Shown here: piece after piece, positions 1 through 54,348 of the stretch
How the letters are laid out: each line of letters starts with the position of its first letter
Position numbering within the stretch: position 1 is the first letter of the stretch
Assembly: GCA_052033375.1 (NCBI GenBank)
Contig: JBPOJQ010000013.1
Span: forward strand, 2,255-66,254
Source: Candidatus Magasanikiibacteriota bacterium
GTDB lineage: Bacteria > Patescibacteriota > Patescibacteriia > Magasanikbacterales > UBA922
Reading direction: 5' to 3'
Length of the DNA: 64,000 nucleotides
Made by a program: the position numbers and the translations under genes
Notes under the pieces: generated by a model
What the model was told of the DNA's origin: nothing
The model's database searches: none
What the model saw: the letters and a program-made list of their open reading frames with translations, nothing else

Positions 1-3000
1 ACAACCTCTACTCGATGCGAAAATGGAATTTGCACCTGTCCTAAATCCATCCCCACCACGACATTGGTATGGCACGCCAAAATTATAATCAGGGAATCCA
101 AATATTGGCGTCAACAAACTCTGCGTATTAGCCCCTAAAATCTCTGCATTTACGACACTCTGTGGAAGTGAACCATATGGTGCGATTCCGGTGGTCTGCC
201 CTTTGATTACTGAAAGAAGGCCATTTGCAGCCGGCTGATACACACTATGAGCCCACACTCGATCGGTCCACGCTTTATTATTATCCTCCATCAGACTTAC
301 TCGATTATCTACGACAGCACTATATTCGAGACATCGATCTTGCATCTTTGCGATTGTTGCGATTCTAATACCAGTCGCCTCTCCGCCACTATTTTCTGTT
401 GCCATACACCATCGTGCAATATACCCGAGAAATTCACCTTCTGCATTGAAATCCATTCCGATTGCGAGCCAGTTATTTTTTCCCCTCTGTTCACAGCGAA
501 CCTGGAATGGATCACTGAATGCGTCAATTGTATTTACTTCAGCATTCTGAAGTGCAGAAAATTCAACACTGTCGCTTCCAAAAACCACAGAAACATATCT
601 TCGCGCTATTTTATTTCTATCACGCATGTCTTCTGATTCGGGACGATTGTATAATTCCCAAATAAATCCTTCCGGACTAATTCCCGAAGAATCATAATCA
701 CAATATGATAACAATCCATTCACACCGCAACTTTCGCTATCACCTGTACGATTCAATACATACGAAATATTCGTCATGTTTGTCTCAGAATTGGTAACAT
801 TGTACGTATGCTGATCATCCGCTCCTCCGTCAGAGTAGGCTGGTACTGTATTTCGATATACCCGCTGATTTGCTGGGGCATTTTTTAATACACTAAATTC
901 AATCTTGACCTCTGCAGTGAGTAGAGCAGGATTCACCCCCTCTGCCCCATCCGTAAATGCAATTGGTACAAAATGAACACTCTCCAAATCATCCTCACGG
1001 AGCCCAGCTTCGACAACTCCATCTGCATGGATAAATGTATTTGAATCTCTAAAACCAGGGAGTAACCCTATTTCAGGCGAGAATGCCATGGTCCCAATTT
1101 TTCCAATCTCCTCACTCCCTGCGTTCATATAATATTCACCGATATGTGAATACCCACTCGAATTTTGTGTTGCACTAAATTTCCGTGGTGGATGCATCAA
1201 TACGCCCGTATCCTCTTCCAACAAATTACCACCACTACCCACAATCTCGGTAACCAGAGGCGCAAATGAATACACTTCTTTCCCCACCCCACCAAGATCT
1301 TCTGAATAATCTACTCGATCACCGCCCTTGGTATCCAGACGAAGCACACGCGCAGAAGGTCCAATATTTTTCCAACTCCATGCCTGGATTGCACGATACA
1401 CTTTCATTTTTTCAGTCGGGCCAGTACCAGTATCACTCATTAAATTACGGTAGACGCTCGTACCCCGATCGACTCGATAATTAGTCTGATTATCTATATC
1501 AAATACCTCACGATACTCAACACCACTATACAATGGTCGTGTAGATATCTGATCGATTGATGTCAGATTCGACCCAATAAATGTTCCCAAATTAACCAAG
1601 CTATTAAGTGATGTGTCATAATACCCTGCACCACGATTCGTGCTCTCCGTGCAATACGCATGTCCTCCACCAAGTGGTGAATCGTATGCCTGTACAGGAT
1701 AATACCCTGCCTGAGGATCAAGATTATTCAAATCCACTGCCGAAGCCGACACTTGAATTGGAAGCCACGTAAGACATGCAAATGCTTCATGCAGTCGAGC
1801 AGTCGCTTTTGAGGTGCCAAGTGGACGACTAAAATCATATTCAATACAAAGTCCTTTCTGTCCCACATATGTCCCACGCTGTTTTATCGTACTACATACA
1901 CCACCCACTCCACACTCAGTAGTGCTCGCGCATGGATTTCCATCACTGTCCCCACCAGTACAAATTCCTGGTGCAACCAATTCAGCGTCTGATGTCGCCC
2001 AATAGTCTACCACTCCATTCTTATATTCAACTTTGACATATTCACATGAACAATCTTCAGATGCACTGCCTGGCTGGCATACATTCGCTCGTTCATACAA
2101 TTCTTTTTTCTCAGTGAAATCTACTCGTGAAAATTCACCATTTTCTTTTACATCACTTTCATTTAGATCGCGTACGGCAATTTCAATCGAGAACGGACTT
2201 GTCTGTTCTGGATACGACTTACAAATTCCTGGCTGCAGCTGCTTCAACATATTCTGAATATTTGACGCAACTGCCGCATCGCTCGTCCCTGCTGCTGGAG
2301 TGAATGTGAATGTACCCTCAATCGGATAAATGCACCGCTCACGGTAGCATCGTCCACCATTATCAAATCCACACACAGCGCCATCGCTTTTTACATACGT
2401 CACACCTTCGCTAGTGTTTGTAGTTTCACGACATCCACGTGCCTCGTCTTCAGTAAAGAAACTATGGCTCATTTCATACCCCATGTATGCTTCCTTTCTA
2501 CCATCAAACAAAAGATATACAAAATTACTTGGATTGTACATGTTGAAGAATGAATAACCAGAATATTCCGTCGCGTTCCACCCTATATCGCGGGAAATAT
2601 ATTTTTCTTCCGTCATTCGAGAATTATCGAGTGTTGCATTTATCCGTTCAATACATTCTCCGGTTGGCCCAAATTTGCGACATCCCACATATTGCTGACA
2701 CAATACCTGTTTGTTTCCATTTTCATCAGTAACTGTAATCGAACTACCACATGCCAGCCATTCACTACACTGTCTATCACGATCTACTTTGAGCAGAATA
2801 TTCGCATCTAAATTCCCTGTAATTACAGGAGTGACCAGGCTATCTTGCGGATTCGCGCTTCGGCTCGCCTGATATGATGCTGACGTATTGTATACCTTAT
2901 CCAAATCTTCGGTCATGTCGAACAATACACATCCTTCTTTTTGACTCACTTTCCCCTGACACTGTGCAACACCCTCTGTCAGTCGATCATTCATGAGTAC

Positions 3001-6000
3001 GTAGTACGATTTGCCATTAGGTGTCGCTGGTGTAATTGCTGAACGATCTACCAATTCAGTACATCCATTATATGCACTTTCACACACACCCACCGCACCT
3101 TGATATTGCTGACTTCCTTGCGAATGAATACCATACTCATTTCCTGCATTAAGATACGTCGGATCACACGGAATAATACCAATATCAATACATTGGCCAT
3201 TACTGCCACACTCAGAATTGGTCCGACATTCCTGATTGCCCACGCTACACCGCCCAGTATCTCTAAACCATCCACTGTACGTCTGTGCCGAAGACCCTGA
3301 GCCGAGCGTCACCTTATCTTTGTATACACACTGTCCATTTCCGCTGTACTTAGGATCCTTGAAATACACCAGTGAATTATCATTTTTAAATGCCGCGCAC
3401 CCCACCTCATTACCTGTACACAATGTATCACCATAGATACGAGGATCATTCTTGATAAATACGTCTTGATAGCTATACGCATTCGCATTATCGGTATTTA
3501 CATTTTTTGTCTCAAGACCGACACGTGTACAAGCAAGATTTTCTTCCTGACATAAAAATTGATTTTGTGCTGCAAGATAAATCAAATCAGAGTCTTCCTT
3601 CACAACAACACTTGATTCATCAATAAATAGTTTATCTGAATTATCAACCGCACATGATCCATTAATCGAGATACACCTGCCGGACGTACCCGCAAAACTA
3701 CCCGATGTAATAGAGGCGTGTGTTGCCGCAGGTGGAATCACCACTGGATTTTGCACTCGGCATTCTCTTTCCCCTTTTGCAACCATACATGTATACGTTG
3801 CCGACACTCCAAGAGATTCAGTTAGAGTGACTGAGCACGGCGTCTGATTGGTGACAGTAGTCGATTTTCGACAAACCACACCATAGGCCTGCTTTTCTTC
3901 AGGTCGCACTCCAGATACAGTATTTTGCGTATCTACCAACGCACGACACCCCACGGCCTCCTCACGACACAATCGATCAAAACCAGTCAATGCAAAAGTT
4001 TGTCCATCGTTTCTTGTATATTCACGACATCCCAGATGTTCTCCAGGCAACCCATTATTCGGTGTGGAATCGCATGCGAGCGAAACCTCATACCCCTCTC
4101 CTGTACGCCATGAATTTTTTATGAGGAACACATGATCACTCGCGGTGCCACCAATTTGCACAAATTCGATATTGTCGAGAAAGAATACTTGATTCGATCC
4201 TTGTGTATTAAAATACAATTGTGTCTGCTTGGTACTATCCCCCGTAAACTGTACAGGTCCCACTCGGTATTCTTGCCACTGTGTTCCAATAGACACAGGC
4301 ACGTTGCTATTTGACGCAGGGTCGAATGTAAATGCATTTCCAATCTGTGCACCATCCTGACTAAATCCAATTGATAATTCAAAGGATGCATTACCCCGTG
4401 CCCAAAAACGAATCTCATACCAGGCACCTGGCTGCAATTTCCCTGATTCAAACGTATAATTCGTGCTTTGAGCATTTACCCGAAGTGAATGTAACCCTAC
4501 TTGCAAGGACTCTGCCTCAATTGACGTGTTTCCAAACCACCCAAGCTTTGCTTGATTGATTGCCCCAGCTGAGGTATCTGATGGTTCGAATCCAAAATTA
4601 GCAACTTCATACAAATTATTTCCCGTATTTCCAATATAAGATCTACATCCATTCGCACTCACAGGACAACTCGTTGCCTCTGCTTTAATCGATTGGTACA
4701 CACACGAGCCAATTCCTTCGGCGTTTAATTCATATCTTCCTCCGGATGCACATCTCTTACATTGACTATTTCCCCATACCCCACCTTTTGCTTCACATAG
4801 AGATGCGCCACCATTTTCTGCAGTAATATTAGTATCTACCACCAATTCTGAATTTGTTTTTCGAAGTGGCGAGCATGAATTTGATACTGTCACCGTATTT
4901 CTAAATACTCGATAAAAAATTTCTCCATTAGCATTATACAAAGCTCGACAATCAGGATCAGCAGCACGAGGATCATTTTGAGTATTATTTAATAAAATAT
5001 TATAAGATTCTTGATTACACTGATCATAATTACTCTGCATGACTGTTTTTACATCTTCCACATAGATTGGAGAGCCTACTGGAAATACAGTCGCAACTGA
5101 ATCACTCGTCTTGTAATTGAGCCCGAGTCCTGCAATATATTCAGCATCTGATTGAGTGATTGGTAATAACGTGTTTCGTCTCAATTGATACCCCTGACTC
5201 TCTGAACCTTCCCATGAGTAAAATACTCCGCTGTTGTTGCCATTCGGACGTTCACAGCGCTTGAGTGATGTGTAATATTCGAGTGACTCACCTCCCGCAT
5301 TTGCAGCATCAATATTCGTAAATTCATCACATCCTACCTGAAGCGCAGAACATGTTCTCCCACTCCCAGCAATGAAATGTAGCGGGAATTTGGTAGATTC
5401 AAACGCAGTCGCTTCTTGCTTGAATGTCTCATACCCCACACACTGTGTCGGACAGCTGTTGCCCCCAATAATACCAGCAACTGATGCACCACCACTCTTG
5501 GGTCGATACTCATCGCATCCCACTTCCTCTGCAGTACATGCACTTGCAAATTGCGAACATGATGCTGATTTTTGTTCTTCCAGTTTTACTATCTCTGCTT
5601 GTGTTTTTGGCCATTCAATGGTCTGCGGTGTTGTCACATCAGTATCGTAACACTGTAGATATTCAGGCGCTTTTTTCAAAAATACTTTTGCATCATCGCT
5701 TGAACTATCATTAACGAGTGGATCCATAAACAGAGAACATCCCTCAGCAGACGCAGGACATTGTGCGCTCAATGTGAAATGGATCGCCTGTGTGCGACCA
5801 GCAAATGCTAATACAGGATCCGCACTTGCAGAAGGAGTCCAGGTATTTCCTACCTTTTCCATACTATACGACCGGCAACCAATTGAATCTGCACTACATG
5901 ACTGTGTATCAAGCGTACGGGACAAATATGATCCTACCTGCCCACTCTCTACTGACACATACGTCTTACATGTATTAAACTGTGGTTCACAGGACTCTCC

Positions 6001-11778: not shown

Positions 11779-11851
11779 GGGCCGTTAGCTCAGCCGGTAG
11801 AGCAGTTGCCTCTTAAGCAAACGGTCGCAGGTTCGATCCCTGCACGGCCCA
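11779..11851 (+). tRNA. tRNA-Lys (anticodon CUU)
   Basis: Cloverleaf folded by hand. Acceptor GGGCCGT/ACGGCCC, anticodon loop CTCTTAA, T-arm GCAGG-TTCGATC-CCTGC. Confidence 0.85.
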
Positions 11852-11858
11852 CACCAAT

Positions 11859-11930
11859 GCCTCTATAGTTTAATGGATAAAACTACGGTCTTCGGAACCG
11901 TTGATGGGGGTTCGATTCCCTCTGGAGGCA
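11859..11930 (+). tRNA. tRNA-Arg (anticodon UCG)
   Basis: Acceptor GCCTCTA/TGGAGGC, anticodon stem ACGGT/ACCGT with loop CTTCGGA, T-loop TTCGATT. Confidence 0.8.
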
Positions 11931-11937
11931 CTAGTAT

Positions 11938-22650: not shown

Positions 22651-22732
22651 TGCTCAGGTGGCGAAATTGGTAGACGCACTACCTTGAGGTGGTAGCGCCG
22701 AAAGGCATGGAGGTTCGAGTCCTCTCCTGAGC
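22651..22732 (+). tRNA. tRNA-Leu (anticodon GAG)
   Basis: Acceptor GCTCAGG/CCTGAGC, anticodon stem CTACC/GGTAG with loop TTGAGGT, and a long variable arm. Confidence 0.85.
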
Positions 22733-22789
22733 ACGACCTTGAGAGACCCTGCTAGATGTCCGAGATGGATACTGCAGATGAGCTTAACA

Positions 22790-36676: not shown

Positions 36677-37302
36677 GAAGAATACCCATTGTTCTTCATT
36701 AGTAAGTATCTCATACTCTTATGCTCCTACAAAAAAATCCGTACCATTTCTGGTACAGATTTTTTTGTTTCATACTACTCCTATAAGCCGAATTTTGTAT
36801 CCCGACATAGTCGGGACGACGATCATTTCTCTAGTCTTACTGTTGCCAGTAAAATCATGAACGAGCTAACTTTTCGAATCCCAAATTGCTTTGGAAAACG
36901 CTGCTCTTTCTTCAGGTAGGGTTTGCCATCAATCTGTCTCGCGACAGAGGAAGTATCGTAGTATTGATACAGATGCATATGCGGACCGATCAATACACCA
37001 ATACACTTTTCACCTTTCATCGCATAGCGATTAGTATAGTCTCTGTGGCACTTTCCCGTCAGAACATTTTGCAATGCCTGAGGTGGGTGTTACCCACTAC
37101 CTTTTTTCTTATCTACTTGGTAGACAAGAGAAGTTCGGACTTTCCTCCCTTCTTCGCTCTTCACTGTGTTCAAGCTTCATACAGACCAGTACTCTCGTAT
37201 TCACAAACATATACGGTGTGTCTGGTGTGGCTCTAAACGTAATGAAGAACGAAGTCAGGCGATCATCCAGAGTAATACGAAACAGTGAGAGAATACCATA
37301 AA

Positions 37303-42684: not shown

Positions 42685-43167
42685 TTATTTTTTTAGACGG
42701 TACCACACCACACTTCCAAACATGGTTGTCGACATTGCAGCCGAGAGCATACAATACGGGCAGACCGTGTATAGGATAAATAGTTGTAGGTAGACAAGAT
42801 AGAGACTGGTCAAAAATCCAAATGTAATGATTCCCTGCAATAGATGCCAGAGACGTATATTACGCACCCGATGAAGTTGGAATACAGTAATGCCGATAAC
42901 GGTATAGTACAATAATCCAAGATACGCGAGAGGAATACCCAATACTTCAGAATATATGCTCTGGAGAACAATATTACAGCTCCCCGGTGATCCTACGATG
43001 CAATTGATTGTACCATCCCCCCCAAACGTACCAATCATATGTTCAATTGAGAGATACAATGCGTCGAGGAATCCAATCCCAGCACATATGATGATTATAC
43101 GAAATAACCAGGTAGGTACTCGCGCCTCACGGACATCAGTAATTAATTGTTTTAGTATAGAAAACAT
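42685..43167 (-). CDS. Vitamin K epoxide reductase (VKOR) family protein
   Basis: Four TMs. Loop Cys pair CIVGSPGSC and active-site CPYC are present. Confidence 0.8.
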   Translation of the reverse strand: MFSILKQLITDVREARVPTWLFRIIIICAGIGFLDALYLSIEHMIGTFGGDGTINCIVGSPGSCNIVLQSIYSEVLGIPLAYLGLLYYTVIGITVFQLHRVRNIRLWHLLQGIITFGFLTSLYLVYLQLFILYTVCPYCMLSAAMSTTMFGSVVWYRLKK

Positions 43168-43175
43168 ATGATATA

Positions 43176-44894
43176 TTACATGTGTTCAACTGTTGTGATA
43201 CCTAAAAGGTCAAACCCACGCTCCATAGTATGAACCACTCTCTCGATAAGTGCAAGCCTGAATTCTTGTGTTGGTTCCGAAGCATTCAACACAGGACATT
43301 CATGATAAAAATGATTCGCGCTTTGTGATAATTCAAATAAATATTGGGCGATATACGACGGATCTCGTTTTTCCACAGCGAGACGTAGCGCAGCATCAAA
43401 TTCGCCGAGACACAATATGAGCTCACGTTCAGCTGATTCCATTACATCTGGAATATATAATTCTCGCCCATGCGATGCGGGTGCACGTTTGGACAAAATA
43501 CTTTTGAATCGAGCGACGATATAGAGAAGATACGGGCCACTGTCTCCTGAAGTGGAGATGGATTCTTGCATATCAAATACAATATCATTTACTCTCCCGG
43601 TTTTGAGAAATGCATATTTCACTGCACCCATAGAGACTCTTTCAACCGTTTCTGCTTTTTCTTCTTTCGACAATTTTGCTTTGATCTCACTTGTCTCCAT
43701 GTGTTCACGGATACTTTCTTTTACTTCTCCAATTAAATCCTCTGCAGTGACCACATTTCCAGTTCGCGAACTCATTTTTCCACCTTTAAGTGTGACCCAG
43801 CCATACGGTAAATGAAATTCTTTTCCCGTGCTTTCTGGAAGCGTTGATTCAAGTGCTTTAAATACTACTTTGAGATAATCTGCTTGTTCAGGACCAATTA
43901 CATGATAAATTGCATCTGGATTGAATTCAGAAAAATGTTTTTCAGCGAGCGCCAAATCTTTTGCTTCATATACCGGAAAACCTTTACTGTTCAAAAACAC
44001 CCGGTCATGCAAATCATGATCACTGCCTTTGAATATGACTGCTCCCTGACTTTTTTCAAATATCCCCTCTTTCAAACCGTCTCCTACGATTTCAACCGCT
44101 CTCTCAAACATTTCTGATTCAAAATAATATCGATCAAATGTGATATCGAGTGAGTTGTAAATACTCTCTAAGTATTCAAGACTCCATGAACGAGTGGTCT
44201 CATACACTTCTTTGATTGCATCATTTCTTTCATACACCATCTCATTGTATTTTTTTACTTCTTCTTGCACGCTTTCACTTTTTTCAAATTCAGTTGCTCC
44301 GTATGCATATACTTTGCCAATAAATTTCATTCGCTCTGACAATGGAGCTTCTTTAATTGCTTCATAATCACTCTTCATTTTTTCAATCCCCCAAAGACAT
44401 TTTGCAATATGCATTCCTACATCCCCTCCGTAGGTCGTACGGATGACTCGATAGCCCGCATATTCATGAAGACGGACTAGCGACTCACCAAGAATTGCAT
44501 TGCGAAGATGTCCGATATGAAAAGCCTTATGAGTATTGGCACAAATAAATTCAATAATAATTGTTCCTTTTGAATCAGAAACTGCCGGTTGTATATGGTT
44601 TTGAAGATTTAGAATAATCTGCGCCAATTCTTTGTCATTGAGAAAAAAATTGACATATGGACCAAATGCTTCTGCCCGTTCTACGAGCACATCTTCAGTT
44701 TCTATATTGAATTTTTCCGCGAGTAGTTTTGCCGCTTCTACGGGCGACATCTTATTCTCTTTTGCATACTGAAAAACAGGAAACGCCACATCTCCCATTT
44801 CTTTTTTTGGCGGAGTAGTAAGGATAATACCTGCTTCACCGATACCAATAGCTTCAAGAAGACCCCCAATGTGGTCTCGAACGTATCGAATCAT
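43176..44894 (-). CDS. argS: Arginine--tRNA ligase
   Basis: Class I HIGH-type motif AFHIGHLRNAILGE. The C-terminal DALR-type anticodon-binding region is present. Length 572 aa. Confidence 0.9.
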   Translation of the reverse strand: MIRYVRDHIGGLLEAIGIGEAGIILTTPPKKEMGDVAFPVFQYAKENKMSPVEAAKLLAEKFNIETEDVLVERAEAFGPYVNFFLNDKELAQIILNLQNHIQPAVSDSKGTIIIEFICANTHKAFHIGHLRNAILGESLVRLHEYAGYRVIRTTYGGDVGMHIAKCLWGIEKMKSDYEAIKEAPLSERMKFIGKVYAYGATEFEKSESVQEEVKKYNEMVYERNDAIKEVYETTRSWSLEYLESIYNSLDITFDRYYFESEMFERAVEIVGDGLKEGIFEKSQGAVIFKGSDHDLHDRVFLNSKGFPVYEAKDLALAEKHFSEFNPDAIYHVIGPEQADYLKVVFKALESTLPESTGKEFHLPYGWVTLKGGKMSSRTGNVVTAEDLIGEVKESIREHMETSEIKAKLSKEEKAETVERVSMGAVKYAFLKTGRVNDIVFDMQESISTSGDSGPYLLYIVARFKSILSKRAPASHGRELYIPDVMESAERELILCLGEFDAALRLAVEKRDPSYIAQYLFELSQSANHFYHECPVLNASEPTQEFRLALIERVVHTMERGFDLLGITTVEHM

Positions 44895-46072
44895 ACAATT
44901 TTCACAAAAAATCTTTTTCCTTTTTGAATTATATCTCCTGGACTGCAGACCTCTTCATAGGACGTTACTTTTTTATCATTAACTTTGACTCCCCCGCCCT
45001 CAATCGTTCTTCGCGCATCACTCGTGCTCGTTGCAAATTTTGCATCCTTAAGAACAGTGATAATATCGTAGGCGGTGGGTTTTAATTCTTCGATATCAGT
45101 TGGGATTTCTTTTTTTGCAAATGTCGCAATGAAGTATTCTTCTGCTTTTGTAGCCTCTTTTTGACCGTGATAAAAACGAACCAACTCAATTCCTAACTTC
45201 ACTTTAAAATCTCGTGGATTCCCGCCTTTTTTCATTTCTTGTGTAAACCCAATAACGGTTTCCATTGGCACCCGAGTCATGTAGGTAAAGTAAGGAATAA
45301 TGAGATCATCTGGAATACTCATGATTTTACCAAACATTTCGTTTGGTTCATCAGTGATATTGACCGTATTACCCCAGCTTGAACTCATTTTTCTCCCATC
45401 AGTACCCGCCACGAGTGGATTCATAATAATGTCTTGTGGCTCTTGTTTGTATGAAGCCTGGAGTGTGCGTCCAGCCAGAAGATTGAATCTCTGATCAGTT
45501 CCACCCAATTCCACGTCAGCTTTTACCGCAACAGAATCATACCCCTGCATAAGCGGATAGAGTACTTCCCGAAGTGATACACGGGTACCTGCATCAAGAC
45601 GACGACGTATATTGTCGCGTGCAATGAATTCAGCAAGTGAAAAAGCATTTGCCTGTTCGCCAAGCTCGTTGTAGTCAATTTTTGATAACCATTTACTATT
45701 GTACTGCACCTCTGCTTTTTTGATATCAATAATTTTTCCTGCCTGTTCTACATAACTTTTCATGTTCTTTTTCACTTGTTCTCGCTGAAGCATGGGTCGT
45801 TCACTGTCTTTGTCCGACGTGTCGCCGATAATACCAGTAAAATCGCCCACAATAAAGACAAGTTGGTGTCCGAGCTCCTGAAAATCTCGCATTTTGAGTA
45901 ATGGAATCGATCTACCTAGATGGAGATTCGGGCTTGTCGGATCAATACCTAATTTTACCCGAAGTTTTTCACCCGATTCGAGACGTTTTTTCAAATGATT
46001 TTTATCAATCACGCTCTCCACTCCTCGGGAGAGTAATTCTTCAATTTTTTTCTTGTCAGTTGAAACTTTCAT
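44891..46072 (-). CDS. tyrS: Tyrosine--tRNA ligase
   Basis: HIGH region PNLHLGR. KMSKS is seen as KMSSS. A C-terminal S4-like domain is present. 4-nt overlap with argS. Confidence 0.88.
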   Translation of the reverse strand: MKVSTDKKKIEELLSRGVESVIDKNHLKKRLESGEKLRVKLGIDPTSPNLHLGRSIPLLKMRDFQELGHQLVFIVGDFTGIIGDTSDKDSERPMLQREQVKKNMKSYVEQAGKIIDIKKAEVQYNSKWLSKIDYNELGEQANAFSLAEFIARDNIRRRLDAGTRVSLREVLYPLMQGYDSVAVKADVELGGTDQRFNLLAGRTLQASYKQEPQDIIMNPLVAGTDGRKMSSSWGNTVNITDEPNEMFGKIMSIPDDLIIPYFTYMTRVPMETVIGFTQEMKKGGNPRDFKVKLGIELVRFYHGQKEATKAEEYFIATFAKKEIPTDIEELKPTAYDIITVLKDAKFATSTSDARRTIEGGGVKVNDKKVTSYEEVCSPGDIIQKGKRFFVKIV

Positions 46073-46126: not shown

Positions 46127-46507
46127 TTATGATGGAGCTTCACATTTTGTCTTCTCCGCAAGTTCAGCAAATGATTTTTCTCCTGTCACCATCGTCCCGT
46201 CGGAAAATTTCCAGGTAGGATATGATTGTACTCCTGCATCATTGCAGACCGGTAATTGTGATTTGCTCGGCGTCGAACATTCCACATAGGGAAGAAGTTT
46301 TGCTGATTTTCCAAATAGTGCTTTCTGTGACTGACAATGTGGGCACCAAAACGCACCATAAAATATAGCCCCGCTATCCTTGATACATGATGCAAATGCA
46401 TCAAATTCACCCGGCTGATTCTTCTTGTATACAGAAAGTCCAATAATGCCCCCAAGAATGAGAATTGCCGCAACCCACCATATAAGATTCTGCTTTTTTT
46501 TGTCCAT
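46127..46507 (-). CDS. Membrane-anchored thioredoxin-fold thiol-disulfide oxidoreductase (CPHC active site)
   Basis: N-terminal TM, then FWCPHCQ. Confidence 0.7.
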   Translation of the reverse strand: MDKKKQNLIWWVAAILILGGIIGLSVYKKNQPGEFDAFASCIKDSGAIFYGAFWCPHCQSQKALFGKSAKLLPYVECSTPSKSQLPVCNDAGVQSYPTWKFSDGTMVTGEKSFAELAEKTKCEAPS

Positions 46508-46522
46508 AGTATGTGAAATTAA

Positions 46523-49500
46523 TTACTCCGTTAATGATCCCAATTGATTGCGCAATGCCTCTAACTTTTGTCTGCTCTCCTCAAGTTTTTGTTGCTCTTT
46601 TTCCACCACTGCTCGCGGTGCATTTTTTACAAACTCTGTATTCGATAGTTTCTTTTCCATCTGAATCACATAAGGCTCTACGTTTGCAATCTCTTTTTCA
46701 ATTCTCACTTTTTCCTTTTTCATATCAACTGCACTACTCAAATCTATTTCTACTTCCACACCAGACTCAGTAAACGAAATTCCCTTTTCAAGTTTTTCGG
46801 CTGCAATTTTTTCGAGTCCTGCTAATCGAATTAACACTGGCGTATATTCTTTGAGTAATGTACTCATGCTCTCTACTCTTATGTTTGCAGTTATTTTCTT
46901 TGCTGGTTCCACTTTGTACTCAGTACGAATTGAACGAATTTTGGTAATAATATTTCGGAGCGTAGTATCAATGAATACAATATTATTATTCTCCTTCTTA
47001 CCTTTACCTAGCTTTGGATATTCTTCTACCATAAGTGGCGTGTCCCCGTATATCTCTTGCCATACTTGTTCTGTCACAAAGGGCATAAACGGATGCCAGA
47101 GTTTGAGAATCGTATTCAAAATATAATTCAAAATATTACTCTTCTCACCTTCTACTTTTGCAATTTCTAAATACCAATCAGCAAGTTCTCCCCAGGTAAA
47201 GTCTCGCAGTGTTTCACCTGCAATGGAAAATTGATATGAATCAAATGACTTACCCACCTGAGTAACTACGGTATGCAATTTCCATAAAATCCATTCATCT
47301 GCAGCAGTCTGTGCTTTTGGTTCTGTAATATCTTTCGCAGGTGTATCAATATTCAACAACATGAACCGGCTAATATTCCAAAGCTTATTGGTAAAATTAC
47401 GGAAACCTGCAATTTTTTCTTCTGACAATCGCATATCATTCCCTGGCGTCCCGCCAATGAGAAGCGATAGACGTGTCGCATCAGTCCCATATTTCTTGAT
47501 CATGTCCAACGGATCAATAATATTTCCGAGAGACTTACTCATCTTTCTTCCTTCTTCATCACGCACCAGTCCATGAAGATACACGGTTTTAAATGGAACT
47601 TCACCAAGGGCGTATGTACTCATAAGAATCATACGGGCAACCCAGAAAAAGAGAATATCGTATCCTGTTTCCAAAACTGAAGTGGGATGGAACACTTCTA
47701 TATCAGTCGATAATGAATTATCCGCAGCGTACACTCGAGTATCTGCCGTGGCCCTCTGTTGTATGGTGTCCCAGCTCTTTCCTGTAAGCGACGTACCGAA
47801 TTGTTTTAGAACTTCGAGCGTATCTCCATGAGATACAATTGCGATACGTTTTCCTCGATTTTTTTGCAATATTTCTAACAAAAAAGAATGTGTCCGTTCA
47901 CGCAAATCCACGTATGATTCCATCCCATAGGGTGTTTCAATCATCCATTCATGTTGGTCCCTCATTTTGTCAAACTCCTCTTCACTTCTACTATTGAACT
48001 CGCCCACACCCACTTCTCGAAGTCGAATATCTTCAATAACAGGAACTCCTAATTTTTTTGAGAGGATTTCGGCTGTCTCATGTGTACGCACAATTGGAGA
48101 TGCGTAGATAATATCCGGCTTTTTTTTCGATAATTTTTTGCTCAATTCCTCCACTTGTTTTCTCCCAACCTTGGTGAGGTGATATGAATTCGTATCTGAC
48201 ACATCGCTCACTACCCCTGCCACATTATTCTCTGCTTCTCCGTGACGAATAAACTGGATTTCAGTCGTAGGCCACCCAAGTGTAGAAAATGTCCACGAAC
48301 CTGAGGAAAACCAGGTATCGAGTGTATCTGAATCTTGAGTCCAACCTTTTCCTTCAGGTTTTGTTCCAACCACAGTCTCTTCACCTTTGTACCACACAGG
48401 AATTTGATGCCCATACCAAATCTGCCGACTGATATTCCAATCACGCAGATTATCAATCCAATGAAAGTATGTTTTATCGAATCGTTCAGGGATAATTTTA
48501 ATATCCCCAGTCTTGACTACGGTTTGCATCAATTGTTTCAAAGTAACCAATTGTCCTTTATTAATTGTCTTTAATCTTGAATCCTTAATCTTAAATTTTT
48601 TATTCACATCAATAAACCACTGGGTTTTTGGCAATGGCTCAACAATATCTCCAAACCGATCACTGGTCCCAACATTCTGAATTGTGTCTTCAGTTTTCTC
48701 AAGAAGTTTTTGCTTTTCAAGCCATGCAACTAACTTCTTTCGAGCTTCTTCAATCGTCAGCCCGGCAAAAGATTCACCTGCATTAGTAGTCATTTTTCCA
48801 TCCTCACCAATCACCTGAATCAGTCCAATATCTTTATTTTTCTGATAGATTTCAAAATCAGTCTGACTGTGTGCCGGAGTGACTCCGAGCGCTCCAGTAC
48901 CAAATGTGTCATCGACTCCAGCGTCTCCAATTACTTGCAATTTCAATGTATGTCCGGTTTGACCGAAGTTTTTTATAACAAAAGTTTTTCCAATATATTT
49001 TTTCCATTTTCCTTTTGGGTTGACTGCAATCGCTGTATCTCCGAGCTTGGTTTCTGGACGAGTCGTTGCGATAGTTATCGGACATTCTGGCCCGTATGTA
49101 AAATAATATAATTTTCCTGGACGCTCGACATACACGAGTTCATCATCACTGCACGTTGATTGACCTTTAACAGACCAATTAATCACGCGGTACCCTCGAT
49201 AAATAAGCCCGTCATCATACATCATTTTGAATATGGTGTTTACGGCCACATTTCGTGGATTATCTAGAGTAAATGCTTCACGCGACCAATCGAGCGATGC
49301 GCCCATTTTTTTCGCTTGATTTACAATCGTATCATGCGACTCACGTGCAAATTTTTCTACGTGTTTCAAAAATTTTTCACGCCCCAGCTCTGCTTTTGGT
49401 TTTTTCATTCCACCATCAATCAACATTTTTTCTACTTTTGACTCAGTTGCGACTGCTGCATGATCGGTTCCTGGAATCCAGAGGGTTTTGTCACCCTTCA

Positions 49501-49738
49501 TCCGATGATAGCGCGCCATCACATCCTGCACTGCGAGCATGACCGCATGACCCATATGGAGGGTTCCAGTCACATTTGGAGGAGGCAATACCATACTAAA
49601 AGACTCTCTCTTCGTATCATCCTTGATCCACTCTGGAGTGCTCTCAGGCGCAAAAAAACCGCCTTTTTCCCAGCGTTTGTAGATCTTATCCTCGTATATA
49701 TGAGGTTCGTAAGCTTTGGGTAATTCTCGAGGGGGCAT
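46523..49738 (-). CDS. valS: Valine--tRNA ligase carrying an inserted histidine-phosphatase (phosphoglycerate-mutase-like) domain
   Basis: HIGH (HMGHAV) and KMSKS are present. A C-terminal coiled-coil is present. A 192-aa insertion between ...FSTLGWP and FHPTSVLETGYDILFFW contains RHGEAENN and SHGDT. Confidence 0.9.
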   Translation of the reverse strand: MPPRELPKAYEPHIYEDKIYKRWEKGGFFAPESTPEWIKDDTKRESFSMVLPPPNVTGTLHMGHAVMLAVQDVMARYHRMKGDKTLWIPGTDHAAVATESKVEKMLIDGGMKKPKAELGREKFLKHVEKFARESHDTIVNQAKKMGASLDWSREAFTLDNPRNVAVNTIFKMMYDDGLIYRGYRVINWSVKGQSTCSDDELVYVERPGKLYYFTYGPECPITIATTRPETKLGDTAIAVNPKGKWKKYIGKTFVIKNFGQTGHTLKLQVIGDAGVDDTFGTGALGVTPAHSQTDFEIYQKNKDIGLIQVIGEDGKMTTNAGESFAGLTIEEARKKLVAWLEKQKLLEKTEDTIQNVGTSDRFGDIVEPLPKTQWFIDVNKKFKIKDSRLKTINKGQLVTLKQLMQTVVKTGDIKIIPERFDKTYFHWIDNLRDWNISRQIWYGHQIPVWYKGEETVVGTKPEGKGWTQDSDTLDTWFSSGSWTFSTLGWPTTEIQFIRHGEAENNVAGVVSDVSDTNSYHLTKVGRKQVEELSKKLSKKKPDIIYASPIVRTHETAEILSKKLGVPVIEDIRLREVGVGEFNSRSEEEFDKMRDQHEWMIETPYGMESYVDLRERTHSFLLEILQKNRGKRIAIVSHGDTLEVLKQFGTSLTGKSWDTIQQRATADTRVYAADNSLSTDIEVFHPTSVLETGYDILFFWVARMILMSTYALGEVPFKTVYLHGLVRDEEGRKMSKSLGNIIDPLDMIKKYGTDATRLSLLIGGTPGNDMRLSEEKIAGFRNFTNKLWNISRFMLLNIDTPAKDITEPKAQTAADEWILWKLHTVVTQVGKSFDSYQFSIAGETLRDFTWGELADWYLEIAKVEGEKSNILNYILNTILKLWHPFMPFVTEQVWQEIYGDTPLMVEEYPKLGKGKKENNNIVFIDTTLRNIITKIRSIRTEYKVEPAKKITANIRVESMSTLLKEYTPVLIRLAGLEKIAAEKLEKGISFTESGVEVEIDLSSAVDMKKEKVRIEKEIANVEPYVIQMEKKLSNTEFVKNAPRAVVEKEQQKLEESRQKLEALRNQLGSLTE

Positions 49739-51152: not shown

Positions 51153-52730
51153 TTATATCAAACTTCTCCCCGTCATCTCAGGCGGTTGTTCGATGCCAAG
51201 AATGGAGAGCATCGTAGGGGCCACATCTGATAAAATTCCAACCGGATGCATCAAGCTCAAATCCCCTTCTGGAGGATCGCCTGTCGGACCTGCCTTACCT
51301 CGAAATTCATTACCAATAATCAGGAATGGTACAGGATTATTACTGTGCTCTTTATCCTGTTCACCTGTTTTCAAATTAATTACTTCTTCAGCATTTCCAT
51401 GATCGGCGGTAATCAATAACACCCCACCTTTTGCCTCTACGTATTCAGCTATTTTACCCAAACTACGATCAATCGTCTCACAGCCTACGATAGTCGCCTC
51501 AAGATTCCCCGTGTGTCCTACCATATCTGCATTCGCAAAATTGACCAAAATCACGTCATACGTATCAGACTCAATTGCAGCGATAACTTTCTTAGTCACT
51601 TCAGACGCGGACATTTCTGGTGCTTTATCATACGAGGACACATTGGGGGATGGAATGATTGCACGCTCTTCACCCTTAAACGGCTCCTCGACAGTACCAT
51701 TGAGAAAAAAAGTAATATGCGCATATTTTTCAGTTTCTGCTGCATGAAACTGCGTGAGTCCTGCTTTACTTATCACCTCAGCAAGACAATTATGCACCAC
51801 AATTGGCGGATATGCTACCACGACCGGAATTTCTTTTTCATATTCAGTCATAGTGACAAATAACAAATCGGTCACATACTCACGCTTAAATTTATCAAAT
51901 CCCGGCAATACAAATGCCTTGGTCAACTGTCGTGCACGATCAGGACGGAAATTAAAGAAAATTACGGCATCACCTTTTTCAATTTGTGCGGTAGGCTTGC
52001 CTTCTTTCCCAATCACAGTTGGAATAAACTCTTCATCATATACTTGTTTTTCATATGAGGCAGCAATTGCATCGACAGGATCCGTACTGTACGTTTCAGA
52101 AATTCCTTCAGCCATCGCTCGATATGCGCGTTCAATTCTATCCCATCGATTATCGCGATCCATCGCATAATATCGACCAGCGAGAGAAGCAATTTGTCCC
52201 ACTCCAATTTTCTTCATTTTTTCCTCAAGTTTGAGAACAAAATCTGTCGCACTATTGTAGAGCGTGTCTCGTCCATCGAGAATAACATGTACAAAGACTT
52301 TTTTTATTTTGTTTTTCTTTGCAAATTCTAACAGCGCGTACAAGTGATCTTGGCTTGCATGTACATTACCAGGACTTACCAATCCAATGAGGTGCAGTGC
52401 AGATTTGTGAGTCAAGACATGTTCTTTTGCAGAAAGAAATGCTTTGTTCTGAAAAAATGTACCGTCCACAATTGTTTTATTGATTCGAGGAAATGTCTGA
52501 TAATATACACGTCCTGCACCGATATTCAAATGCCCTACTTCGGAATTTCCCATTTCACCATACGAAAGTCCAACCTCATTTCCAGAAGCATATAACGACA
52601 TTGCAGGGTATTCTTCGATAAAACGATCCATGTGCGGAGTGTTTGCACGATAGACCGCATTCCCCTCACTCGGAGGCGCGACTCCCCACCCATCAAGAAT
52701 TGCGAGTACAACAGGTTTTGGCCTTGGCAT
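51153..52730 (-). CDS. gpmI: 2,3-bisphosphoglycerate-independent phosphoglycerate mutase (copy 1)
   Basis: N-terminus ILDGWG. SEVGHLNIGAGR matches the iPGM metal-binding and Ser-phosphatase motifs. Length 525 aa. Confidence 0.9.
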   Translation of the reverse strand: MPRPKPVVLAILDGWGVAPPSEGNAVYRANTPHMDRFIEEYPAMSLYASGNEVGLSYGEMGNSEVGHLNIGAGRVYYQTFPRINKTIVDGTFFQNKAFLSAKEHVLTHKSALHLIGLVSPGNVHASQDHLYALLEFAKKNKIKKVFVHVILDGRDTLYNSATDFVLKLEEKMKKIGVGQIASLAGRYYAMDRDNRWDRIERAYRAMAEGISETYSTDPVDAIAASYEKQVYDEEFIPTVIGKEGKPTAQIEKGDAVIFFNFRPDRARQLTKAFVLPGFDKFKREYVTDLLFVTMTEYEKEIPVVVAYPPIVVHNCLAEVISKAGLTQFHAAETEKYAHITFFLNGTVEEPFKGEERAIIPSPNVSSYDKAPEMSASEVTKKVIAAIESDTYDVILVNFANADMVGHTGNLEATIVGCETIDRSLGKIAEYVEAKGGVLLITADHGNAEEVINLKTGEQDKEHSNNPVPFLIIGNEFRGKAGPTGDPPEGDLSLMHPVGILSDVAPTMLSILGIEQPPEMTGRSLI

Positions 52731-52737
52731 AGTAAAA

Positions 52738-54348
52738 TTAAAACAAAGATTTCCCAGTCATATCTTTCGGCTGTGTACCACCTACCATCTTTATTATCGT
52801 AGGCGCAACATCAGCGAGTATACCATCTTTTAATCTAATCCCTTTGGTACTATTTCTAATCAATATACAGGGCACCGGATTCAAACTGTGTTCAGTATCA
52901 ACTTCCCCAGTCTCAATGTTTTTCATTTCTTCAGCATTTCCATGATCAGCGACAATCAACACTTGTCCATCACGCGAGAGCACCTCTTCAACAATTTTTT
53001 CCACACAGTCATCGACAACAGACACGGCAATTTTTGCTGCTTTGAAATTCCCGGTATGACCTACCATGTCCGCATTTGCAAAATTGATACAATAAAAATC
53101 ATACGCCTGTTTTTTTATCAATTTTATTACCGTATTCGTTATTTTCCCTGCAGCCATTTCGGGCTTGGTATCATGATGTGCGACAGTTGTTGATTCTATT
53201 TTCATTCGATCTTCCCCATTTACAGGATCAGAGTACCCGCCGTTGATAAAATACGTCACGTGGGCATATTTTTCTGACTCAGCAATATAGAGCTGGGTCA
53301 TATGTGCCAAGGTGAGTGGTAATGTATTGTATACATCGGGCGACGGAAATGCAGTCAAAATTTTTTCCAGATCGGGACCAAAATCAGTCAAAGCGACAAA
53401 CCTAATATTTTTGGGAACCTTGGTACGCCTAAAAGAACGTGGATTTTTCTGATTAAAATCATCCTGTACAAAAGCCTTGGTAATTTGTCTGGCGCGATCA
53501 GATCGAGCATTGAAAAAAATAATAACATCTGTATCTTCAATAGTGCCTACGGGTTTTCCATAATCGTCGACTATGACTGAAGGTGAGATAAATTCGTCAG
53601 TCTCTCCTCGATTATACGCCTGTTCAATCGCCTCTTCTGCATTTTTTACCTGATGTCCTCGCCCGAGAGTCATCGCTTCATATGCAGCTTGGGTTCGATC
53701 CCATATTTTATTTCGATCCATGCCATAGAGTCTCCCCATAATTGTGGCTATTTTTTCGGTATGGAGCATGTGTCCTCGCAGTTGGTGCAAGAACGTCGAT
53801 GCGGCATGCGGACCCGAATCTCGTCCATCAGTAAAGAGGTGCAGGTATACTTTATCAATACCCTCTCTCCGACATAATTCCAACAATGCATAGACATGTT
53901 CTGGATAGGAATGAGCGCTATTCTCATCAGTGAGCAACCCCATCAGATGTACGGCTGAATTGTATTTTTTTGTATGGAATAATGCTTGCCTAAATGCTTC
54001 ATTTTTGAAAAAAGTTCCATCATGAATAGTATCTGAAATAGAAACCAAATCTTGTTTTACAATTCTTCCAGCACCAATATTCAAATGTCCTGCTTCAGAA
54101 TTTCCAATTTGACCAGAGAATAACCCCACGTGTTCACCGTAGGTTTTGAGCTTTGACCATGGATATTTTTTGAGATATCCGAATATATGAGGTGCAGTAT
54201 GCGAAGTGATTGCATTACCCTCACGATCTTCGGGCGCCAAACCAAAGCCATCAAGAATAATAAGCGCCGTTGGAGCATGCATGTGCTGGGTAGATTGTTG
54301 TTTTCCTTTTGTTTTTTGCTTGAGTGACATACTACGTTCAAATTTCAA
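52738..54348 (-). CDS. gpmI: 2,3-bisphosphoglycerate-independent phosphoglycerate mutase (copy 2, tandem paralog)
   Basis: ILDGFG and SEAGHLNIGAGR are present, over a full-length 536 aa. Confidence 0.88.
   Translation of the reverse strand: MKFERSMSLKQKTKGKQQSTQHMHAPTALIILDGFGLAPEDREGNAITSHTAPHIFGYLKKYPWSKLKTYGEHVGLFSGQIGNSEAGHLNIGAGRIVKQDLVSISDTIHDGTFFKNEAFRQALFHTKKYNSAVHLMGLLTDENSAHSYPEHVYALLELCRREGIDKVYLHLFTDGRDSGPHAASTFLHQLRGHMLHTEKIATIMGRLYGMDRNKIWDRTQAAYEAMTLGRGHQVKNAEEAIEQAYNRGETDEFISPSVIVDDYGKPVGTIEDTDVIIFFNARSDRARQITKAFVQDDFNQKNPRSFRRTKVPKNIRFVALTDFGPDLEKILTAFPSPDVYNTLPLTLAHMTQLYIAESEKYAHVTYFINGGYSDPVNGEDRMKIESTTVAHHDTKPEMAAGKITNTVIKLIKKQAYDFYCINFANADMVGHTGNFKAAKIAVSVVDDCVEKIVEEVLSRDGQVLIVADHGNAEEMKNIETGEVDTEHSLNPVPCILIRNSTKGIRLKDGILADVAPTIIKMVGGTQPKDMTGKSLF

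Follow-up and report, generated by a model that had tools for sequence, protein, structure and literature searches.

Organization of the valS Gene and Its Insert

Aminoacyl-tRNA synthetases (aaRSs) are among the most conserved enzymes, and the domains they have accreted have repeatedly exposed new biology, such as editing and signalling. The 64,000-nt stretch of contig JBPOJQ010000013.1 of a Candidatus Magasanikiibacteriota bacterium analysed here (hereafter, the window) raises the question of why the gene of a valyl-tRNA synthetase (ValRS), valS, would hold a phosphatase domain in the middle of its catalytic core, and what this domain would do there. An earlier note, made from the letters of this DNA, had reported a 192-aa insert at positions 47693–48268, and its boundaries proved exact: the insert occupies residues 491–682 of the protein, precisely from STLGWP to FHPTSV. 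The gene and its parts are as follows.

46523–49738, minus strand: valS, encoding a 1071-aa ValRS with the nested phosphatase domain; a single unbroken open reading frame (ORF), stop codon at 46523–46525
48269–49738, minus strand: ValRS residues 1–490, with the first Rossmann half, the CP1 editing domain, CP2, CP3 (short and lacking a Zn knuckle), and the DTLDTWFSSGSWTFSTLGWP helix
49547–49558, minus strand: HIGH motif (H61–H64), invariant
47693–48268, minus strand: the insert, a histidine-phosphatase (branch 1) domain with the C-terminal linker TDIEV
46526–47692, minus strand: ValRS residues 683–1071, with the FHPTSVLETGYDILFFWVARM strand/helix (ribose-binding GYD), KMSKS, the anticodon-binding domain, and the C-terminal coiled-coil arm
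47531–47545, minus strand: KMSKS motif (residues 732–736), invariant
Residues 814–950, minus strand: Anticodon_1 (Pfam)
Residues 1005–1069, minus strand: Val_tRNA-synt_C (Pfam)

The protein scores above both NCBIfam valS equivalog cut-offs (NF004349, 917.6 bits with a cut-off of 704; TIGR00422, 834.9 bits with a cut-off of 612.1), and Pfam detects tRNA-synt_1 in two stretches around His_Phos_1, together with Anticodon_1 and Val_tRNA-synt_C. Apart from the insert, it aligns end to end with the ValRS of T. thermophilus (PDB 1GAX/1IVS): residues 1–490 correspond to 1GAX residues 2–471 and residues 683–1071 to 1GAX residues 474–859. The two enzymes have their domains and motifs in common (HIGH, KMSKS, CP1 editing, anticodon-binding, C-terminal coiled coil), and the CP1 editing motifs TTRPET and GTG...H..D are invariant in the window ValRS; they differ by 184 extra residues, which form a foreign enzyme domain in the loop at about positions 471–474. 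To our knowledge, no solved or described ValRS holds anything at this loop. An identical protein (P0121) is present in an NCBI assembly, and a second valS was not seen within the window.

The insertion point falls within the second Rossmann half, in the loop that joins the DTWFSS-bearing helix (amino-acid pocket) to the strand–helix FYPxxVLVTGYDILFFW, whose GYD is associated with the ATP ribose. In homologous structures of isoleucyl-tRNA synthetase (IleRS), CP3 ends and the second Rossmann half starts just ahead of the WFDSG motif, the next strand (Gly-x-Asp) contacts the ribose of the adenylate, and the WxISRxRxWG linker preceding CP3 lines the pocket of the tRNA CCA end. The catalytic-core placement given in the earlier note is thus a fair one, and the synthetase regions that it had called intact are all present.

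The syntenic locus L043 contains the nearest ValRS core, an insert-less orthologue (protein P0128) with 86% amino acid and 81% nucleotide identity. Its gene order is the same as in the window (iPGM–DHH–valS–126-aa ORF–tyrS–argS). In the codon alignment, GWP-KETDDLKK-FHPT is replaced by GWP-[TTEIQ...NSLS]-TDIEV-FHPT with a clean in-frame gap, and the flanks of the insert are 100% identical at the protein level. The linker TDIEV is homologous to the linker of the insert-less ValRS, and the net gain is 184 aa because about eight linker residues were retained or replaced. There is no compositional break across the junctions. To judge from these alignments, the window gene is the organism's housekeeping valS carrying a precise domain insertion, and the insert is almost certainly a genuine nested domain within a functional valS.

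As had been supposed, the insertion is not an intein or an intron: Pfam gave no Hint, intein, or LAGLIDADG match, and the insert (TTEIQ ... TDIEV|F) has no N-terminal Cys/Ser and no C-terminal His-Asn. It resembles inteins in being an in-frame insertion at a highly conserved site of an essential gene, with a patchy occurrence among close relatives, and differs from them in that it is a conserved enzyme expected to stay in the mature protein. A 10-nt direct repeat with one mismatch is located at the boundaries of the insert, at 47700–47709 and 48258–48267 (ATATCAGTCG / ATTTCAGTCG); on the minus strand, the copies encode STDI and TTEI. A target-site duplication was considered and rejected. A region like this would be expected to hold about 13 such pairs, so the repeat is probably due to chance; its N-terminal copy belongs to the domain itself, as the native start 'TTxxxxRHGE' (cf. 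PhoE), and the repeat is not conserved in other genes with a domain at this site.

Fold and Catalytic Residues of the Nested Domain

The Pfam family His_Phos_1 (PF00300) matches residues 496–669 (window positions 47732–48253) with E = 1.3e-35 and 123.2 bits against a cut-off of 21.7, covering profile positions 3–179 of 194. By sequence, the closest solved relative is the broad-specificity phosphatase PhoE (1EBB/1H2E; E = 8e-14). The RHGEAENN and SHGD motifs, for which a catalytic role had been proposed, align to the PhoE active site and supply the two catalytic histidines of the insert.

48239–48247, minus strand: RHG motif (R498, H499, G500), aligned to PhoE R9/H10; H499 is the predicted phospho-acceptor
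48086–48088, minus strand: R551, aligned to PhoE R59
48014–48016, minus strand: E575, aligned to PhoE E83
47828–47830, minus strand: H637 (SHGD), the second catalytic His, aligned to PhoE H151

The domain is also complete in its predicted fold. The AlphaFold2 model of the insert alone, built on a 29-sequence alignment, has a pLDDT of 92.5 and a pTM of 0.90. Foldseek matched it over the whole length (TM 0.76–0.86, E about 1e-14) to the glucosyl-3-phosphoglycerate phosphatase GpgP Rv2419c, PhoE, phosphoserine phosphatases, a riboflavin-pathway phosphatase, and CobC, so that the whole-length TM to PhoE, GpgP, and phosphoserine phosphatase (PSP) is about 0.8. The longer dPGM mutases fit less well, with partial matches (TMt 0.60–0.69). 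Thus, the insert has a full-length fold in common with the branch-1 histidine phosphatases PhoE (1EBB/1H2E), Rv2419c (4QIH), the His-type phosphoserine phosphatase (4IJ5), the riboflavin-pathway HFP (9MMH), and CobC (6NRU), as well as the catalytic set Arg-His...Arg...Glu...His and the size of about 190–200 aa. Unlike these solved phosphatases, to which it is only 21–26% identical, it has invariant cap residues of its own (R103, W108, P113, E117, Y119 in the numbering of the insert) and is nested in a synthetase.

No NCBIfam dPGM cut-off was reached (dPGM_arch, 103.8 bits with a cut-off of 225; pgm_1, 25.1 with 81.7; other dPGM models, 16–28 bits with cut-offs of 316–421), and the scores for the named small histidine phosphatases are likewise below their equivalog cut-offs (ribazole_cobC, 79.6 and 162.9; PspA, 74.7 and 350; SixA, 38.2 and 74.5). 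The insert therefore belongs to the superfamily but to none of its named families. A role as the glycolytic dPGM was rejected on the same scores; moreover, two iPGM genes adjoin valS, so a glycolytic mutase role for the insert is unnecessary. These tandem paralogous genes (iPGM_N + Metalloenzyme) are at 51153–52730 and 52738–54348 on the minus strand, beside an apparent enolase gene, and the duplication is kept in the relative (L043:737–2317 and 2322–3899).

Recurrence and Conservation of the Insert

The domain located directly after STLGWP in ValRS is referred to below as class A; 35 domain copies with 25 distinct sequences were available. Among the top 120 matches to the full protein, about 30 are ValRSs of 1050–1094 aa that contain PF00300, the least similar being 53% identical. 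Their source assemblies are those of NCBI, JGI, ENA, and Logan, with contigs of up to 914 kb, and one JGI record is titled 'valyl-tRNA synthetase/broad specificity phosphatase PhoE'. The class-A insert is found in 12 GTDB species representatives; the records that give a taxon are assigned to Candidatus Magasanikbacteria. The junction STLGWP|xTT..RHGEAEN is common to all 25 distinct sequences. Its recurrence in many independent assemblies, along with the E-values of the domain matches, rules out a chance resemblance.

R8, H9, G10, R61, E85, H147, and G148 (numbering of the insert) are kept in 35/35 class-A copies, and G10, E11, N14, and D149 are kept alongside the five catalytic residues. An alignment of 15 inserts with 41–61% identity to that of the window has 39 invariant columns, including the cap residues listed above. 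One class-A pair, L008 and L009, is close enough for synonymous sites to be unsaturated; in this pair, the insert has a dN of 0.025, a dS of 0.60, and an omega of 0.04, while the omega of the ValRS core is 0.11. When the window is compared with locus L001, the insert evolves faster than the core at the protein level (61% and 90% identity, respectively), with a rough omega of about 0.27 calculated from a dN of 0.34 and the four-fold-site divergence. As judged from these sequence comparisons, the insert is under purifying selection, and the phosphatase is quite probably catalytically active.

A Second Site in ValRS and Copies in IleRS

In other ValRSs from candidate phyla radiation (CPR) bacteria, the same kind of domain is located about 35 residues upstream, between IPVWY and QDPDTLDTWFSS. 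This site (site B; class B) corresponds to the Cys-rich CP3/Zn-knuckle position of T. thermophilus ValRS, and its records include Falkowbacteria and Kuenenbacteria.

Loci L013–L016, L018–L021, L023, L024, L031, and L035: ValRS with the domain at site B (proteins P0150, P0160, P0167, P0168, P0174, P0180, P0184, P0186, P0214, P0217)
Loci L017, L025–L030, L032–L034, and L036–L040: IleRS, and some ValRS, whose CP3 holds His_Phos domains, from one up to four in tandem (proteins P0241, P0242, P0245, P0250, P0252, P0365, P0368)

The cap residues R103 and W108 are present in 100% and 94% of the class-A domains, 73% and 53% of the class-B domains, 23% and 8% of the IleRS inserts, and 20% and 11% of the free forms. 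This signature suggests that both ValRS sites are occupied by one sub-lineage of the domain, associated with ValRS.

A GTDB-wide scan with a profile of the insert revealed 42 loci, nearly all in CPR metagenome-assembled genomes, and many of them are IleRS genes, both bacterial and eukaryote-like in type, whose CP3 holds the domain. The IleRSs of Peregrinibacteria, 1465–1551 aa in length, have two copies each. In an exhaustive search of 1.84 billion cluster representatives, the same profile gave 67 matches below 1e-30. Among the best 150 representatives of 50%-identity clusters, about 65 are at least 500 aa in length, and nearly all of these are synthetases (IleRS or ValRS) in which one to four copies are embedded. 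Pfam confirmed the embedded copies in seven long representatives, including P0241 with four in tandem. About 97% of the IleRS inserts keep the catalytic residues, in a sample biased toward good matches.

Extra insertions of about 85–110 aa that are not phosphatases are present in the CP3 of P0131 (1184 aa), P0138 (971 aa), and P0213; P0131 carries such an insertion plus the class-A phosphatase. CP3 is therefore a general insertion hot spot in this clade.

Gain, Loss, and Recombination

A neighbor-joining tree was constructed from 119 ValRS cores after excision of the insert. Proteins with the insert are overrepresented in this sample, but the sister relationships stand. On the tree, states A, B, and none are intermingled. 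Clades of mixed state with a bootstrap of 100 are {P0124[A], P0128[-], P0130[-]}, {P0132[A], P0165[-], P0174[B], P0176[-], P0186[B]}, {P0162[-], P0168[B]}, and {P0144[-], P0184[B]}; the clade of 12 around the window ValRS, with the same bootstrap, consists of eight proteins with the insert and four without it. According to this tree, the presence and absence of the insert switches repeatedly among closely related ValRSs. The identities of hosts and inserts are only moderately correlated (r = 0.65), and incongruent pairs occur: P0121 and P0126 are 83% identical in the host and 51% in the insert, and P0126 and P0137 are 68% identical in the host and 73% in the insert. In a neighbor-joining tree of 267 His_Phos domains, class A was not recovered as a clade, with no bootstrap support, and its nearest non-A relatives (IleRS inserts, ValRS class-B inserts, and free forms) are all about 42–47% identical to it.

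The NG86 estimates for the window and L001 gave a pS of 0.79 for the insert and 0.46 for the core. A deeper history of the insert than of its host, which these values seemed to indicate, was withdrawn, as the 5' half of valS is about as divergent at four-fold sites (0.53 vs. 0.61). In the same comparison, the four-fold-site divergence is 0.33–0.79 in the N-terminal half, 0.61 in the insert, 0.28 in the 100 aa to its right, and 0.12–0.27 in residues ~777–1000, with a downward step near the 3' junction of the insert. The valS gene is thus a recombination mosaic, which shows that it recombines between lineages. Together with the near-invariant flanks, this mosaic structure provides a simple route for swapping insert-bearing and insert-less alleles.

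Free-Standing Homologues and the Synthetase Neighborhood

The valS gene of the window is followed by the genes of two other synthetases.

44891–46072, minus strand: tyrS, ORF downstream of valS
43176–44894, minus strand: argS, ORF downstream of tyrS

The conservation of the valS–tyrS–argS cluster is evident from the gene order of L043 and from tblastn synteny over class-A and class-B loci. The closest free-standing homologues of the insert, about 190 aa in length, are encoded directly downstream of argS in 6/6 loci with usable context (L045/46, L049, L051/52, L053, L054, and L056), and four of these six also have an ileS that lacks the insert, as a neighbor or one gene off. In the case of the domain-bearing IleRS genes, argS is located immediately upstream (with a gap of 0–340 nt in 4/6), and there is no free-standing copy between them. 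Thus, the locus patterns are argS–HP–ileS and argS–ileS[HP], where HP is the histidine phosphatase, and valS–tyrS–argS for the ValRS forms. On the basis of gene order, this set of patterns is a classic sign of functional linkage, and it suggests that the phosphatase gene was relocated locally into its neighbor gene, in either direction. No other copy of the domain was found in the window or in the L043 locus.

Distant free-standing homologues are located elsewhere; one is in a cobU–cobS operon, and another follows AbiEi/AbiEii. The latter, P0007 (239 aa), overlaps the end of this toxin–antitoxin pair by 16 nt (L048:3797–5720).

In four loci, a conserved membrane ORF (about 51 aa) intervenes between argS and the gene of the free-standing phosphatase (L046:4837–4995, L053:2818–2973, L054:2741–2896, and L056:1737–1892). 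It has a basic N-terminus (RLPKKYRxKY), a hydrophobic C-terminal helix, and no Pfam annotation, and neither the window nor the loci of nested copies contain it. In the L046 locus, which belongs to a Moraniibacteria genome, an Exo_endo_phos gene lies between the free-standing phosphatase gene and ileS. A T-box-like leader precedes this ileS (L046:6337–6512; 55.7 bits, E = 1.8e-11, below the Rfam gathering score of 93), and the gene itself (L046:6541–9397) is called as four ORFs by frameshifts, probably owing to assembly indels. In L049, IleRS is encoded by two successive ORFs of 412 and 554 aa (2682–4346 and 4371–5609, minus strand), with the break near position 186 of the tRNA-synt_1 profile; either a genuinely split gene or a sequencing error could explain it.

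Two further genes of the synthetase cluster in the window can be noted. A 126-aa membrane-anchored, thioredoxin-like protein with a CPHC motif and no Pfam match is encoded between valS and tyrS (46127–46507, minus strand), and a VKOR-family protein is encoded just past argS (42685–43167, minus strand). They may be a disulfide-bond-forming pair embedded in the synthetase cluster; the arrangement is conserved in L043. Ordinary features of the window, at 36768–37192 (minus strand), 11779–11931, and 22652–22734 (both plus strand), are an RNase P RNA of class A (115.7 bits) and three genes for tRNA (Lys-CTT, Arg-TCG, and Leu-GAG).

Possible Function of the Nested Phosphatase

The recurrence of the domain in two synthetases, its intact catalytic residues, and the neighborhood of its free-standing form are best read together as an active phosphatase that may well be functionally tied to class-Ia synthetases. 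A domain similar to the small phosphomonoesterases PhoE, GpgP, and PSP has been inserted in frame in a loop of the second Rossmann half of ValRS; according to this reading, the synthetase would still charge tRNA-Val beside it, so that the product would be a bifunctional protein. The substrate of the phosphatase would be a phosphomonoester that has to do with class-Ia aminoacylation, and the activity would be supplied in trans by the operon form and in cis by the nested form. The phospho-His phosphomonoester chemistry and the location of the domain suggest the tRNA 3' end or a nucleotide by-product as candidate substrates. The leading candidate, a long shot in itself, is a phosphate-blocked tRNA 3' acceptor end (with a 3'-phosphate or a pyrophosphate of the toxSAS type) that would be cleared before charging; a by-product such as AMP is a second candidate and a speculation. 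The toxSAS toxins pyrophosphorylate tRNA CCA ends and thereby block charging (10.1101/2021.04.30.441581; PMC11559606), and a phosphate-blocked 3' end is therefore conceivable as a substrate. The toxins and the small alarmone hydrolase antitoxins offer a functional analogy only, as they have no kinship with the insert in sequence or fold. The Exo_endo_phos gene beside the free-standing phosphatase gene of L046 can be cited alongside the tRNA 3'-end candidate.

Several facts weigh against such a tie. The nearest solved relatives of the insert are phosphatases of small molecules (glucosyl-3-phosphoglycerate, phosphoserine, a riboflavin-pathway intermediate, and alpha-ribazole-P), not enzymes of nucleic acids, and catalysis is a prediction from the sequence and the model, while the candidate substrates are guesses. 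Relatives with 86% core identity lack the insert; it is therefore not required for valine charging. At site B, several copies of the domain have lost residues needed for catalysis (VHS or AHG instead of RHG; SSG or QSE instead of HG), and catalysis is therefore dispensable in some lineages. In addition, aaRS genes form clusters in CPR genomes in any case, and the argS and ileS neighborhood may therefore be partly incidental. Finally, the full-length AlphaFold2 model, built on a 32-sequence alignment (pLDDT 68, pTM 0.40, Rossmann segments below 50), is too poor to orient the phosphatase pocket toward the synthetic site or the tRNA.

The first two of these facts would also be expected if the domain were an active phosphatase with an ordinary housekeeping role on a small molecule (phosphoserine, a sugar phosphate, or a cofactor intermediate), unrelated to aminoacylation and merely co-expressed or tolerated in the highly expressed synthetase genes of streamlined CPR genomes. 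The closest structures and NCBIfam families are all those of small-molecule phosphatases, ValRS manages without the insert in sisters at 86% identity, and the nested copy could be the sole one of the genome, since neither the window nor L043 contains another. Such a passive fusion is possible but doubtful: it poorly explains repeated nesting in two paralogous synthetases at no fewer than two sites with up to four tandem copies, it leaves the strict argS–HP(–ileS) neighborhood and the host-specific cap signature of the ValRS inserts unexplained, and an insertion inside a Rossmann fold is far less likely to arise by accident than an end-to-end fusion. The degenerate site-B copies, which keep the domain after losing its catalytic residues, are what a non-catalytic module would leave, and the His_Phos pocket is a ready-made phosphate-binding site that could grip a tRNA phosphate or sense a glycolytic metabolite to tune charging, or the domain could be a structural element. 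We consider this unlikely for the window insert, as all five catalytic residues are kept in every class-A copy together with G10, E11, N14, and D149, nearly all IleRS inserts are catalytically intact, omega is as low as 0.04 in one pair, and mere binding would not need a proton-donor Glu plus both His.

The patchy distribution with its strongly supported clades of mixed state, the host/insert incongruence, the mosaic structure of valS with a step near the 3' junction, and the identical protein flanks would all fit a selfish or neutral passenger, harmless but not useful, that spreads among valS and ileS alleles by homologous recombination via conserved flanks. A passenger would not be expected to show strong purifying selection or to keep its catalytic residues intact, Pfam revealed no endonuclease, Hint domain, or other mobility machinery, and the 10-nt boundary repeat is most simply explained by chance; hence this explanation is very improbable. 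The assembly is of the metagenome type, which made a chimeric contig fusing a phosphatase gene into valS worth weighing, as the earlier note had also advised, but nothing was found in its favor. The same junctions are shared by no fewer than 25 distinct proteins, which stem from independent projects, assemblies, and assemblers, on contigs of up to 914 kb; the reading frame is continuous with no compositional break; and the insert partly co-evolves with its host. An artefact of assembly or annotation can be practically dismissed. A functional coupling of the phosphatase to synthetase function, suggested by sequence and gene order, thus remains the favored reading, with the chances for and against it about equal.

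Precedents and Significance

A hydrolytic domain inside a class-Ia synthetase is not without parallel. The CP1 editing domain of IleRS, ValRS, and LeuRS is also nested in the Rossmann fold of these enzymes and is the textbook case of class-Ia folds tolerating and exploiting internal domain insertions. Unlike the insert, CP1 is universal and ancient and cuts an aminoacyl ester, whereas the insert is lineage-restricted and patchy, occupies another site, and belongs to a phosphoryl-transfer superfamily. Another precedent is the IleRS with an N-acetyltransferase (GNAT) domain (NCBIfam NF040702, 'ileS_w_GNAT'), known here from the name and length of the model; foreign enzyme domains in class-Ia synthetases are therefore already known as a kind. 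The window ValRS is not a member of NF040702 (132.9 bits with a cut-off of 1999), and its domain is a histidine phosphatase instead of GNAT. The literature searches turned up no account of a synthetase that holds a histidine phosphatase, in agreement with the earlier claim that the feature is undescribed in ValRS. This domain nesting is apparently undescribed and is widespread in CPR bacteria, where it extends to IleRS, the second ValRS site, and the argS-linked free gene.

The window protein contains a second, seemingly active catalytic center of different chemistry inside the Rossmann fold of a synthetase. The window and L043 form a natural pair with and without the insert, usable as a control, and the two insertion sites mark permissive loops of potential use in synthetase engineering. 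It is conceivable, if improbable, that the nested phosphatase is a built-in module next to the synthetic site in ValRS or IleRS that serves tRNA acceptor-end repair or immunity, stripping a 3'-phosphate or a toxSAS-type pyrophosphate from the CCA end so that the same enzyme can charge the tRNA. If so, it would protect CPR bacteria, or the targets of their phages, in cis from toxins that modify tRNA ends, and the argS–HP–ileS operon would be the trans version. If the favored reading is true, the 'Rosetta-stone plus operon' pattern would mean that phosphatase activity matters for the function of class-Ia synthetases in a huge uncultivated part of the bacterial tree.

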